A DNA stretch of 64,000 nt from a virus (Duplodnaviria > Caudoviricetes), in IMG/VR virus record IMGVR_UViG_3300033121_001571; one strand, given 5' to 3'. Numbering within the stretch: position 1 is the first letter of the stretch; each line of letters opens with the position of its first letter. The notes beneath the pieces were generated by a model. The model did no database searches, was not told the DNA's origin, and worked only from the letters and a program-made list of their open reading frames with translations. Of this stretch, positions 11,062 through 60,571 are shown in pieces. Position numbers and translations under genes: made by a program.

Positions 11062-11173
11062 TGTAGTTGTGACTAGGTTCGAACTAGTAACTAGAGTCCT
11101 TTCAACTCTAACTCTACCTTGCTTTGTTACACAAGACGTCACGTGAACAAAGACTTGAGTTTACACAACTACA
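11062..11173 (-). ncRNA. tRNA-like RNA with a ~35-nt hairpin inserted in the D loop
   Basis: AGTTGTG/CACAACT acceptor, ACTC/GAGT D stem enclosing CTTTGTT...AACAAAG, AGAGT-TGAAAGG-ACTCT arm, ACTAG-TTCGAAC-CTAGT T arm. Confidence 0.65.
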
Positions 11174-11464: not shown

Positions 11465-11582
11465 AACGTAATTTTGGGACTCGAACCCATCTCCCCTCGC
11501 AACCGAGATCCGTCTCATGCACGAGTCGAACGTGCCAGTTACTACTCCGTCGAGGCGTAGCGCCAACCTACCCAATTACGTT
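11465..11582 (-). ncRNA. tRNA-like RNA with two T-arms (anticodon loop replaced by a ~50-nt domain)
   Basis: AACGTAATT/AATTACGTT closing stem, GTAG/CTAC D arm, CCTCG/CGAGG stem enclosing GCACG-TTCGACT-CGTGC, terminal TGGG-TTCGAGT-CCCA T arm. Confidence 0.65.
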
Positions 11583-11584
11583 AG

Positions 11585-11652
11585 AGCCCAATCAAGGAAT
11601 TGAACCTTGTCTCTGCTTATGATCGCAGTGTGTTTCCGTACACTAGTCGGGC
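11585..11652 (-). tRNA. Degenerate tRNA (CAT-containing 8-nt loop)
   Basis: GCCCGAC/ATTGGGC acceptor, CTGC-GATCATAA-GCAG, CAAGG-TTCAATT-CCTTG T arm. Confidence 0.55.
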
Positions 11653-11739: not shown

Positions 11740-12047
11740 CTGTTGATTGCTTGATCACTCGGCAGAGATCTCACTCTCTGCACCTCAACAACAAAGTCAC
11801 GTTGTTCTGTCACAGAACTCAGTCGCTAGCTAAGCGACATCAACATTCTGGTGAGAATTTACTCACATGCACCCAAGTTCTGAGTCCATTGTCGGTGCAC
11901 TAGTTACGATAGTGAATAAGGAACTGCCTGATCACTTCGTAACTGACATTACGCTTCCTCATTGTATTAGACCTGACCAGTTCCTGGCGTCAGTGCTTTA
12001 CTCCGAACAGAGTTAAGTTCAGCCACGAGTGATCAAGCAATCAACAG
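11740..12047 (-). ncRNA. 308-nt structured non-coding RNA of unknown class
   Basis: Perfect 22-bp terminal inverted repeat (11740-11761/12026-12047), several internal hairpins, no ORF, embedded in the tRNA array. Strand is inferred from the flanking tRNAs. Confidence 0.7.
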
Positions 12048-12121
12048 AGTCGAGAGTGAGAATCGAACTCACATGTTCACGGAGTTTGCAGTTCCGCCGC
12101 TGGCCTTTGGCGTTTCTCGAC
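12048..12121 (-). tRNA. tRNA-Cys(GCA)
   Basis: CGGAA-CTGCAAA-CTCCG; U73. Confidence 0.85.
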
Positions 12122-12432: not shown

Positions 12433-12437
12433 AATTG

Positions 12438-12508
12438 TAACCGCAGTTAGACTCGAACTAACACTTTTACCGTGTCGAGGTAATGTTCTACCTTTGAACT
12501 ATGCAGTC
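12438..12508 (-). tRNA. tRNA-Val(GAC)
   Basis: TTACC-TCGACAC-GGTAA. Confidence 0.85.
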
Positions 12509-19844: not shown

Positions 19845-19954
19845 ACTGCTTCAGCCCACCGTGGGCCCACGGTGGGCTTTGTAACGCACTATAACAGTTA
19901 CCCCTTACTAGAAATAAAAAAGCCCACCGTGGGCCCACGGTGGGCTGAAGCAGT
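19845..19954. repeat. Double-palindrome inverted repeat element
   Basis: The perfect 26-bp palindrome AGCCCACCGTGGGCCCACGGTGGGCT occurs at 19853-19878 and 19921-19946, inside ~36-bp inverted arms. Confidence 0.9.
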
Positions 19955-57563: not shown

Positions 57564-58692
57564 GTGACTGTCTGTCATCACTTGATTCTACTCACTTAGC
57601 GGTGGAGTTGCACTGTCGGCTCTCGATCGCTGCTGCGACGAGGGCGTAGAGAGCACCCGCGGTGTAGCGGATGTACACTGCTTCTTCGGCCCTGTTATCG
57701 AGAGAAAATCTTGCGCCAGCATGCATGGCGTCATACACTGCGTCGAAAACCCTCCCTGAATTGACGACCCGCACCATTTCGACTGTGCGATACCAGTGCT
57801 CAGGGCGTCGGGAGGCGAAAATCCTCTTTGCTTCCTCGTGAGCCTCTTGCAAAACGTCCATCTCAGCCTCCGTAGAGAGACTCTACACCCCCAACGGTGA
57901 AGTTACACTCTCACAGACACTGTTTGTTAACGAAGTCTCTGAAAGCGTTTTTCGACGCGAGGTTATGAACCTCGACAGCCTTGAAGAAGTACTGTTTCTT
58001 ATAGCTATCGTCGGTAAAAACGAGCTCCAACGGAGCACCGTCTTCCACCCAGTAGGGCCACGAAGAGATCTGATCTCTTGCTTCACGTATGAGAGAACTG
58101 TGACCCAAAACAAGAAACTCCTCGGCGAGCTCTTTGGCTTTCGCAAAAGAATCCACCACGATGAAATCTTGGTAGTGAGTTTCGTCCGAACCACAGTATG
58201 GACGAAACCCGTACGTGATCAAAGTGAGTTGCATGTTTTCTTTTCACTCACAGAAGTGAGAGTCCACTCCAAAAAAGTAACGAGAGAACATGAGCAACGG
58301 CGGCCGACGGCCACTCACGGCATGATCAATGCAATTGCAGTGTACCGAGAGCAGGGTTCTGGTCCTGATCGATGACTACAACCATCCTCTCGTCACTTTT
58401 TTGGAGTGAACTGTTGTCTCTTGATAAGAGAGATACTACCTCAAGCAGAGAGACAGTTCACTGCGGGTCAACACTAACGTAGAAAACGTGACCCTTTTCA
58501 CAGACATACGGAATCACGTTGTCATCCCAGGAGTACGAACCCGTGAGCTCTTCTCCGTAAACGACACCGATGTCTGTACCGAGCACGTAGCCCTCCAGAT
58601 CGGGATCGTTGAACTTGATCTTGTCTGTCCCGCACTCGGGGCAGCACTTCACTCCAAAGTCACTTGGAGTTTTCTTTTTCTTTCCCACGTGA

Positions 58693-58860: not shown

Positions 58861-58920
58861 GAACCCAATCTACCACTCTACGCTCACAGTTTCACAGTTG
58901 CCTGTATAATAGGCTGTTGA

Positions 58921-59507
58921 AAACAGAGATGCCCACGGTGAAGTCACCGTGGGCATTCCTTATTTGCCTTCACGTAGTTTGAATTCTTTGGGCTCTGTGT
59001 AAGTTGCAGGAGAACCTTGTATGATAGTATCATGATCAGCCGCCGCGACGAAGTCCTCACTCTCCTCACCGCATTCCGCCATGGCTACCACACGAACGTG
59101 GCCAAGAGCGTGATGAACAACCGCGATGCTTGTGCCCTCATCCTTTGGAAGATGGGTCCTCAGACGAAGTCCCAACTCACCTCAATCCTCAATGCCTGGC
59201 GCGGAAAGCCTCGCGCGCAAACGTACCTCTTCAACTCGTCTCACTCTGGCGGGTATGGGTGCGTCGCTGTCGATCCCATGCAGCGTGGATGGACCATGTC
59301 AAACGACGGTTGGTCGGGCATCGTGCGTCAGCCCTCTCCGGGTTTCAAGACGTTCTTCCGTAGAACTTACTGGTATCGCATCTCCAAGGGAACCTACGCC
59401 CCCACCGCCGAGTGCACTAAGCGGATGGCCGAACTTGGTTTCATCTGAGTGAATTATCAAGAAACAAAGATGCCCACGGTGACTTCACCGTGGGCATTTC
59501 TTATTTG
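58921..59507. repeat. Pair of 46-bp palindromic direct repeats flanking one gene
   Basis: ATGCCCACGGTG-(AAGT/ACTT)-CACCGTGGGCAT cores at 58921-58966 and 59462-59507. Confidence 0.9.
59032..59448 (+). CDS. Hypothetical protein (leaderless)
   Basis: GTGTAA(58997)-17-TATGAT-6-ATG places the start at 59032. Confidence 0.7.
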   Translation: MISRRDEVLTLLTAFRHGYHTNVAKSVMNNRDACALILWKMGPQTKSQLTSILNAWRGKPRAQTYLFNSSHSGGYGCVAVDPMQRGWTMSNDGWSGIVRQPSPGFKTFFRRTYWYRISKGTYAPTAECTKRMAELGFI

Positions 59508-60207: not shown

Positions 60208-60377
60208 GTTTTCCACAAAAGAACAGTGCCGAACTGATCCCTAGCGCTAGGGATTAGGTCTGCATGCAAGACAAAGAGTTACACAGCGTTCCAACTAACA
60301 CAGAGATTGCTACCACTCTGTTAGGGATCGAACCTACCTGTGTACTTCTTTTTCGGCACTGTTCTTTTGTGGAAAAC
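60208..60377 (-). ncRNA. Circularly permuted tRNA-mimic (Y RNA/YrlA-like) ncRNA, copy 1
   Basis: Perfect 26-bp closing stem. Inside: TACACAG / TAGG-TTCGATC-CCTA (T arm) / ACAGAG..CTCTGT hairpin / GTT-AGTTGG-AAC (D arm) / CTGTGTA. Confidence 0.7.
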
Positions 60378-60384
60378 TGTTCAT

Positions 60385-60548
60385 TCCAGAAGAGTGATGA
60401 CAGAACCGTTATCTCTTGGCCGAGAGACAACGAGTGTGTACAAGCACAACTGTGCTTCAGTTTGGGCACCAAGCCGCCACCCGAAAAAGTGGCTCAGGGA
60501 TCGAACCTGATAACCTCAGCGACGATCTTCTGTCATCACTCTTCTGGA
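60385..60548 (-). ncRNA. Circularly permuted tRNA-mimic (Y RNA/YrlA-like) ncRNA, copy 2
   Basis: Perfect 21-bp closing stem. Inside: TCAGG-TTCGATC-CCTGA, GCCAC..GTGGC hairpin and GGC-TTGGT-GCC D-like arm. Confidence 0.65.
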
Positions 60549-60571
60549 GAGAACGTTTCTAACCTTAGTTG

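Follow-up and report, generated by a model that had tools for sequence, protein, structure and literature searches.

A conserved structured RNA of about 310 nucleotides between tRNA genes of giant phages

Introduction

What does a long, perfectly closed inverted repeat do between the tRNA genes of a phage? The question is raised by a 308-nucleotide (nt) element at positions 11740–12047 of IMG/VR record IMGVR_UViG_3300033121_001571 (Duplodnaviria; Caudoviricetes). The stretch analysed, here called the window, comprises 64,000 nt of an uncultured giant phage; its 38 tRNA genes form two arrays, and every one of them is encoded on the minus strand. The element sits between a tRNA-Cys gene (12048–12121) and an aberrant tRNA-like gene (11584–11652), collinear with the tRNAs. 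We conclude that it is very probably the gene of a stable, non-coding RNA of ~310 nt, which belongs to a family outside Rfam and is found in one clade of giant (~280–370 kb) phages. It is a new family within an already recognised type, that of large structured phage RNAs co-located with tRNAs. The original prediction, an uncharacterised tertiary-folded RNA released with the tRNAs and having a candidate kissing loop, is supported by negative Rfam searches, expression, homologues and covariation. Three corrections are required: the RNA is encoded on the minus strand, the additional crossing pairings lack support, and a conserved three-segment central stalk joining two multi-helix junctions has to be added to the fold.

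Fold of the element

The two 22-nt arms of the element (11740–11761 and 12026–12047) are 100% complementary and enclose 264 nt, which bears out the perfect 22-bp terminal inverted repeat described originally; the 22-mer occurs at only 2 sites in the window, and shuffles expect 0.00. Reading the sequence confirmed hairpin A (CTGAC/GTCAG, 11973–11993) and hairpin B (AGTTACGA/TCGTAACT, 11902–11944), and the claim of complementary 8-mers in their loops (11978–11985 and 11919–11926) proved exact. When the two loops, those of hairpins H2 and H3 below, were shuffled, an 8-bp Watson–Crick run between them arose in 5 of 5000 trials. Folded as minus-strand RNA, the full element reaches −125.9 kcal/mol (z = −7.5), and its interior without the closing stem has z = −2.6. 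Ensemble pair probabilities are ~0.85 or more for all main helices, namely the closing stem, a central stalk and seven hairpins.

A closing helix of ~20–22 bp leads into a basal junction with H1, H2 and H7. From there, a three-segment stalk reaches a distal junction with H3–H6, and the loops of H2 and H3 are joined to each other by 8 bp. In the list below, RNA position n is window base 12048−n, and R2 denotes the covariance model built from the window element alone. The features are as follows.

11740..12047, minus strand: whole RNA gene, 308 nt (R2 self-match; homologues align end to end)
12026..12047, minus strand: closing helix P1, 5' strand, RNA 1–22 (perfect 22-bp inverted repeat)
11740..11761, minus strand: closing helix P1, 3' strand, RNA 287–308 (perfect 22-bp inverted repeat)
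12003..12025, minus strand: junction GUGGCU into hairpin H1, RNA 23–45 (GUGGCU invariant in all members)
11973..11993, minus strand: hairpin H2, RNA 55–75, loop L2 = AGGAACUG (RNA 63–70 = 11978–11985)
11945..11964, minus strand: central stalk, 5' strand, RNA 84–103 (has invariant GGAA.CGUAA; pairs with RNA 237–259)
11902..11944, minus strand: hairpin H3, RNA 104–146, loop L3 = CAGUUCCU (RNA 122–129 = 11919–11926; pairs with L2)
11813..11900, minus strand: distal junction hairpins H4, H5 and H6, RNA 148–181, 182–197 and 198–235
11789..11811, minus strand: central stalk, 3' strand, RNA 237–259 (inside near-invariant GUGAC(A/G)GAAC(A/G)ACG(U/C)GACU)
11762..11781, minus strand: hairpin H7, RNA 267–286, with GUGA (GNRA-like) loop
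12048..12121, minus strand: tRNA-Cys(GCA), called by ARAGORN and Rfam tRNA, whose last base U73 directly precedes RNA position 1

H5 has a GUAAA loop, and H6 a conserved GUUGA/CUGAG internal loop together with a UAGCU apical loop. The earlier statement that the element lacks an open reading frame (ORF) and a T arm stands: the sole ORF is a trivial 50-amino-acid TTG frame on the plus strand, ARAGORN and Rfam called no tRNA or transfer-messenger RNA (tmRNA) inside the element, and no T-arm or tRNA-like module is present in it. A consensus scan revealed no promoter-like site within or close to the element, and its four terminator-like matches on the plus strand did not exceed the shuffle level.

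Homologues in giant phages

All family searches used R2, which matched seven IMG/VR giant-phage contigs with scores of 71–213 bits:

L319 and L340: 212.8 bits, same RNA sequence
L288: 190.6 bits
L363: 185.5 bits
L265: 166 bits
L278: 124 bits, cut by the locus end; full length in record G001, 171 bits
L297: 71 bits, the most distant member

The loci L288, L265 and L278 came from a scan for RNase P motifs, and L297, L319, L340 and L363 from motif scans derived from the hits. As the searches rest on a single-sequence model, distant members were probably missed. The homologues are 313–327 nt long and 56–68% identical to the window copy. Searches of five whole records (G001–G005) returned exactly one copy per record; these include G001 (369 kb, terminal repeats, 100% complete), G002 (331 kb, 99%) and G003 (309 kb, 91%). 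The NADAR and DUF2201 proteins of the L265, L288 and L278 phages are 50–61% identical to those of the window, indicating that these phages are relatives of the window phage. The family is defined by a closing helix of ~20–22 bp, H1–H7, the three-part stalk and the invariant motifs GUGGCU, GGAA.CGUAA, UGAC.GAAC and GACU, all of which were found.

All homologues lie inside tRNA arrays. In six of the seven members, the end of a tRNA, either its last base or its encoded CCA, stands directly before RNA base 1; the abutting tRNA is Cys in the window, Pro(GGG) in L288, L265 and G001, and Val(CAC) in L319 and L363. The nearest upstream tRNA of L297 is 221 nt off. On the other side, the next tRNA begins 3 nt past the RNA 3' end in L288, G001 and L363. 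The tRNA-Cys of the window has no encoded CCA, and CCA is encoded at the junction in L288 and G001.

Further searches were mostly unproductive. A scan anchored on a neighbouring helicase gene found a syntenic tRNA array in only one (L001) of 80 IMG/VR loci, gave cellular helicases only among genome contigs, and yielded L161, L163 and L166 from metagenomes. Neither blastn of the element against a phage collection nor a search of IMG/VR with a 19-mer of the stem arm gave a match. Pattern scans returned chance matches (L296, L298–L304, and 60 of the 63 new loci in the last scan), and L333, with an 18-bit partial R2 match, was set aside.

The homologues do not connect the element to a known family. 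Rfam returned no family at E ≤ 10 for the element, even with 318 nt searched, and none at E ≤ 1 for three homologues, so that the known-family match that would have spoken against novelty was not seen. This holds for the GOLLD, ROOL, OLE, raiA and HEARO models (element at E ≤ 10, three homologues at E ≤ 1), for YrlA (RF02553) on the element, and for the known ribozyme classes in Rfam (hammerhead, twister, hepatitis delta virus-like, group I and II introns); ARAGORN and Rfam likewise found no tRNA-like domain with a tag reading frame, as expected of tmRNA, in the element. Short matches to signal recognition particle RNA, the 23S GTPase-associated centre and group II domain 5 were rejected because they sit in covarying helices or loops and are absent from the homologues. 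We found no Rfam 15 family and no paper on the RNA, the candidates of the 10,006-csRNA paper lying outside the comparison.

Covariation and the loop–loop helix

The alignment of the family (A12) holds 7 distinct sequences. In it, 93.3% of pair cells are standard pairs, and both-side changes occur in 69 of 100 pairs; none of 500 shuffles reached any of these pairing measures, and sliding the partners by 1–3 columns left 8–19 pairs with both-side changes. RNAalifold independently gave 85 pairs, 54 of them compensatory, and recovered the closing helix, H1–H7 and the three stalk segments. Within A12, the closing helix shows both-side changes in 19/22 pairs (93.8% of cells paired) and H1 in 4/6. 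H2 is paired in 100% of cells with 3/5 pairs covarying; H4, H5 and outer H6 are 100% paired with 4–5 covarying pairs each; and 5/7 pairs of H7 covary. The stalk helices are 84–96% paired and mostly invariant, with 1–4 covarying pairs.

Both the stalk and the loop–loop helix are absent from the R2 model. The latter is found in 7/7 distinct sequences, with one U-U mismatch in L319 and 8/8 pairs, two of them G-U, in G001. It is paired in 97.5% of A12 cells, and 4/8 of its pairs change on both sides:

RNA 63/129: A-U or G-C
RNA 65/127: G-C or A-U
RNA 66/126: A-U, G-C or G-U
RNA 68/124: C-G or U-A

In L297, the loops of H2 and H3 carry an unrelated 8-mer pair, UGAGUGUU/AACACUCA. An 8-bp run appeared in 3–5 of 5000 loop shuffles in each of four members tested (p ~0.001). 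The homologue search and the covariation analysis of the loop–loop pairs thus speak for the kissing loop. The crossing pairings TGCACC/GGTGCA and ACTCAG/CTGAGT, from which a pseudoknot had also been suggested, fared differently: the letters are present, but the pseudoknot has no comparative support. TGCACC pairs locally in H4 instead, where both-side changes affect 5/7 pairs, and of ACTCAG/CTGAGT only UCAG/CUGA is conserved, with neither variation nor covariation.

Certain G-U pairs are invariant on the tRNA strand (for example GU in 7/7), which establishes this as the coding strand. Invariant positions make up 37% of the unpaired bases versus 18% of the paired ones, with invariant runs of GUGGCU, GCAC, GGAA, CGUAA, UGAC, GAAC, GACU and GUGA. 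RNAs that make tertiary or ligand contacts typically show such an excess of invariant unpaired positions.

Expression and strain variation

Sequencing runs from eight studies (river, sludge, wastewater and other aquatic samples) contain the stretch. Four sludge metatranscriptome runs from two studies cover only 0.25–0.30 of the 1.2-kb query. Two of these gave stand-alone contigs that match the element exactly: 11746–12017 in run X17 (272 nt, depth 73.8) and 11747–12024 in run X18 (278 nt, depth 54.5). The flanking spacers and an adjacent release-factor-like gene have depths of 0–8, and loose ends are absent among those listed for the X17 and X18 contig ends. Since DNA carry-over could not produce this depth profile, the element accumulates as a discrete RNA, far above its flanks. 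Hence both expression and covariation, the lack of either of which would have spoken against the original prediction, were seen, the first in metatranscriptome contigs and the second in A12. The contig end shared by the two studies (11746/11747) gives a weak hint of the RNA 3' end.

Over 2 kb, two DNA-like contigs show six differences from the window, five of them inside the element. Two of the five, the plus-strand changes 11767 G>A (H7) and 12029 G>A (P1), turn G-C into G-U in the minus-strand RNA and would be A-C mismatches in a plus-strand RNA; the other three are all in the H4 loop. That both substitutions stay paired on the minus strand only is further evidence that the RNA is read from this strand.

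Alternative identities

The size and position of the element, together with the lack of an RNase P RNA in the window by Rfam, led us to test whether it could be a diverged RNase P RNA of the phage itself, or a relic of one, a reading that we now consider scarcely credible. Class A RNase P RNA does occur in the syntenic tRNA arrays of L161 (261 bits), L001 (167 bits) and L166 (163 bits). Moreover, the arm spacing is similar (265 nt for P1 of L166, 264 nt for the element), RNase P RNA stands directly after tRNA-Cys in L256 and L250, as the element does, and by eye GGAGUAAAGCAC resembles conserved region I (CR-I) and GACAGAAC conserved region V (CR-V) of RNase P RNA. However, homology tests gave no support. 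No RNase P family was found at E ≤ 10 in 318 nt or 801 nt; R1, a covariance model of phage RNase P RNAs, produced only noise in pieces of at most 4 bits even when its filters were disabled; Smith–Waterman scores against shuffles had z ~0; and nhmmer found nothing. Membership of RF00010 takes a score of at least the gathering threshold (100 bits) or a significant local match, and the element showed neither. The phage RNase P RNAs examined in alignment keep CR-V, and 54 were fetched via CR-I; the element has neither region. Helix P4, formed by GAGGAAAGUCNGGGC of CR-I and ACAGAANNCNGCUUA of CR-V, is missing, the element having GGAGUAAAGCAC and ACAGAACAACGUGACUUU, and the putative P4 partner CUUU is not kept in the homologues (CUGA), its bases pairing in the stalk. 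The by-eye resemblances to CR-I, CR-V and a P8 motif are therefore dismissed as chance. Decisive is the finding that L288/G004, L265 and G001 hold a canonical RNase P RNA (260–277 bits) a few kb from an element homologue in the same array, which makes the element a separate RNA and not an RNase P orthologue.

The idea of a DNA-level element (an insert like a miniature inverted-repeat transposable element, a cruciform or a recombination site), or of a stable but functionless by-product, is very improbable as well. It would account for the perfect terminal repeats, for the patchy occurrence within the clade and for strain divergence above that of the flanks. On the other hand, there is no second copy in the window and one copy per complete genome, no target-site duplication or direct repeat is visible at the ends, and no read joint skips the element in four runs. 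Invariant single-stranded motifs persist at the 56–68% overall identity of the family. Arms that differ wholly between phages and nevertheless stay paired, with G-U pairs on one strand only, point to selection on RNA and not on DNA.

A stable non-coding RNA gene is the reading we retain, and several points weigh against it. R2 found no element in L161, the closest relative by helicase, nor in L001, L166 and L163, which shows that the RNA is dispensable within the clade. With five of the six strain differences, it also evolves faster than the neighbouring tRNAs. The seven distinct sequences of A12 are few, five of them being fairly close to each other, and because the nested helices were aligned to fit the model structure, the counts of pairs given above are too high. 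Finally, Logan contigs carry no strand, exact ends or expression level, and the RNA contigs are without the first 23–30 nt of the RNA, possibly a library effect.

RNase P RNA genes in related phages

The search for an RNase P identity uncovered the following class A RNase P RNA genes.

L161:7681–8037, full-size
L001:16417–16704, reduced, ~288 nt
L166:7996–8282, reduced, ~288 nt
L288:6330–6684
L265:7367–7724

About 50 further IMG/VR loci (L241–L295) have class A RNase P RNA in giant-phage tRNA arrays, where such genes are common; some are cut to ~288–300 nt without P13/P14, and they often abut tRNAs. We found no paper describing a phage-encoded RNase P RNA. Class A RNase P RNA is absent from record G002 (99% complete), and G003 has only a 21-bit, 89-nt class A fragment (G003:C1:262137–262225) 3 kb from its element copy, which shows that the element and RNase P RNA are not strictly linked. 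Some phages of the clade therefore seem to have lost their RNase P RNA or to keep only a degraded form of it.

In runs X9 and X16, 410 other letters replace window positions 12435–12485 (net +359 nt), a segment made up of the 3' part of tRNA-Val(GAC) plus the spacer that leads to tRNA-Arg(TCG); the X18 RNA contig has the window form. In relatives, this place beside Val and Arg(TCG) is where RNase P lies.

Genomic setting and neighbouring features

Genes near the element encode a T4 RnlA-like RNA ligase, a NADAR protein, a Rad3/DinG-type helicase, a DUF2201 metallopeptidase/VWA protein and an HD-domain protein resembling tRNA nucleotidyltransferase. The helicase is at most 52% identical to any other on record; its nearest relatives (47–52%) are mostly from Logan assemblies, one being VFSW01000729.1 (L161), and the nearest cultured phage stands at ~31%.

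Three non-canonical tRNA-like genes cluster immediately downstream of the element:

11584–11652: 2-nt anticodon in the ARAGORN call
11465–11582: ~118 nt, extra T-arm-like insert
11063–11172: D-loop hairpin

Elsewhere in the window, the segments 58261–58412, 60208–60377 and 60379–60554 are closed by perfect or near-perfect inverted repeats of 26–27 bp with 100–122 nt inside. None of the three is matched by R2; long closing stems look like a recurrent trait among the RNAs of this phage. A perfect 36-nt inverted repeat with GC-rich palindromes (CCCACCGTGGG) and a 38-nt spacer lies upstream of the DUF2201 gene (19845–19954), and a related pair at 58920–59506. Between 26000 and 64000, no ORF of at least 250 amino acids is present under any stop-codon reassignment tried, and the GC content of the window rises from ~0.36 to ~0.52 near 46 kb.

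Maturation and possible functions

Based on the arrangement of the genes, we propose the following hypothetical route of maturation, in which (i) the element would be transcribed within a polycistronic tRNA precursor; (ii) its 5' end would be made by the 3'-end processing of the abutting tRNA; (iii) its 3' end would result from RNase P cleavage of the next tRNA followed by trimming, or from cleavage within the stem, possibly by RNase III; and (iv) the blunt terminal duplex of ~20–22 bp would shield both ends from exonucleases. Release by the enzymes that process the flanking tRNAs, combined with an end-protecting duplex, would fit the high accumulation of the RNA. In the folded molecule, H2, the loop–loop helix and H3 could stack parallel to the stalk.

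As to function, we tentatively favour the view that the RNA may be a pre-folded particle that binds a protein, tRNA or the ribosome in a tRNA/translation takeover module of the phage; it would then be a smaller counterpart of ROOL and GOLLD. A bolder view seems doubtful to us: a new ribozyme-scale RNA of the translation module, either a catalyst or ribonucleoprotein core that would work beside RNase P on tRNA precursors or tRNA 3' ends, or a particle that would assemble itself through the covarying loop–loop helix. If true, it would be a second, previously unknown large functional RNA in giant-phage tRNA operons.

Self-cleavage, or the processing of neighbouring tRNA ends such as the 3' end of the abutting tRNA, is quite unlikely taken by itself. 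Ribozyme-like size and conservation, two multi-helix junctions, GNRA-like loops and invariant junction strands are in keeping with catalysis, as is the first RNA base directly after a tRNA in 6/7 members; in addition, tRNA-Cys without an encoded CCA calls for precise 3' processing at the window junction. Yet the negative Rfam result for known ribozyme families speaks against it, tight packing throughout the arrays makes the abutment nothing special, and the distant upstream tRNA of L297 does not fit. Also unlikely, we think, is an intermolecular L2–L3 helix that would build head-to-tail dimers or larger RNA-only particles like those of ROOL and GOLLD. The RNA is abundant, the covarying complementary 8-mers lie in two different loops, and the ROOL kissing loop was first read as tertiary and proved to be quaternary (PMC12286853). 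Covariation, however, fits pairing within or between molecules equally, and an intramolecular helix would probably fit, with 5 bp of H2, 8 bp of loop–loop helix and 13 bp of H3 beside a stalk of ~15 bp plus internal loops. What remains of our belief goes to other functions of an RNA, the RNase P, DNA-element and by-product readings jointly receiving only a very small share.

Comparison with known systems

Few RNAs combine large size and intricate folding with conserved junctions, and the known ones are ribozymes, riboswitches, ribonucleoprotein cores and RNA-only cages. With its junctions, irregular stalk, GNRA-like loops, covarying loop–loop helix and niche, the element comes closest in type to ROOL and GOLLD. 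These phage RNAs are located near tRNA islands and use kissing loops to form RNA-only cages, as seen by cryo-electron microscopy (cryo-EM) (PMC12286853). Like the element, they are non-coding RNAs of phages or prophages that frequently lie near tRNA islands, with many helices and an architecture that depends on kissing loops, and neither ROOL and GOLLD nor the present RNA has a known protein partner or function. In contrast, the element has no sequence or covariance-model similarity to them. ROOL comprises ~580 nt and GOLLD 800 nt or more, whereas this RNA has ~310 nt and a long closing helix, is wedged directly between tRNA genes and is so far confined to one giant-phage clade.

Phage RNase P RNA (RF00010) shares with the element its place in giant-phage tRNA arrays, the abutment to tRNAs, a length of 287–360 nt, a closing helix and multiple junctions. 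It differs in CR-I, CR-V and P4, which the element lacks, and the negative homology tests and the coexistence of both RNAs separate them further. YrlA-type Y RNAs, like the long-stem RNAs of the window, have 5' and 3' ends that form a long helix around a module, but RF02553 does not match the element, which lacks a T-arm. RNAs C and D of phage T4 (species 1 and 2) and the RtT RNA of the Escherichia coli tyrT operon are stable, cotranscribed with tRNAs and released by tRNA processing; their function is unknown, they are much smaller than the element, and those of T4 are partly tRNA-like.

In summary, the element unites features that are rarely found together in a candidate motif: strong covariation that includes a tertiary or quaternary loop–loop helix, high natural accumulation and a sharply defined niche between tRNA genes, in giant phages whose genomes further encode RNase P RNA and tRNA-repair enzymes. 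Its modest length of ~310 nt suits it to probing, cryo-EM and in vitro assays, which makes the role of phage tRNA-island RNAs more tractable.

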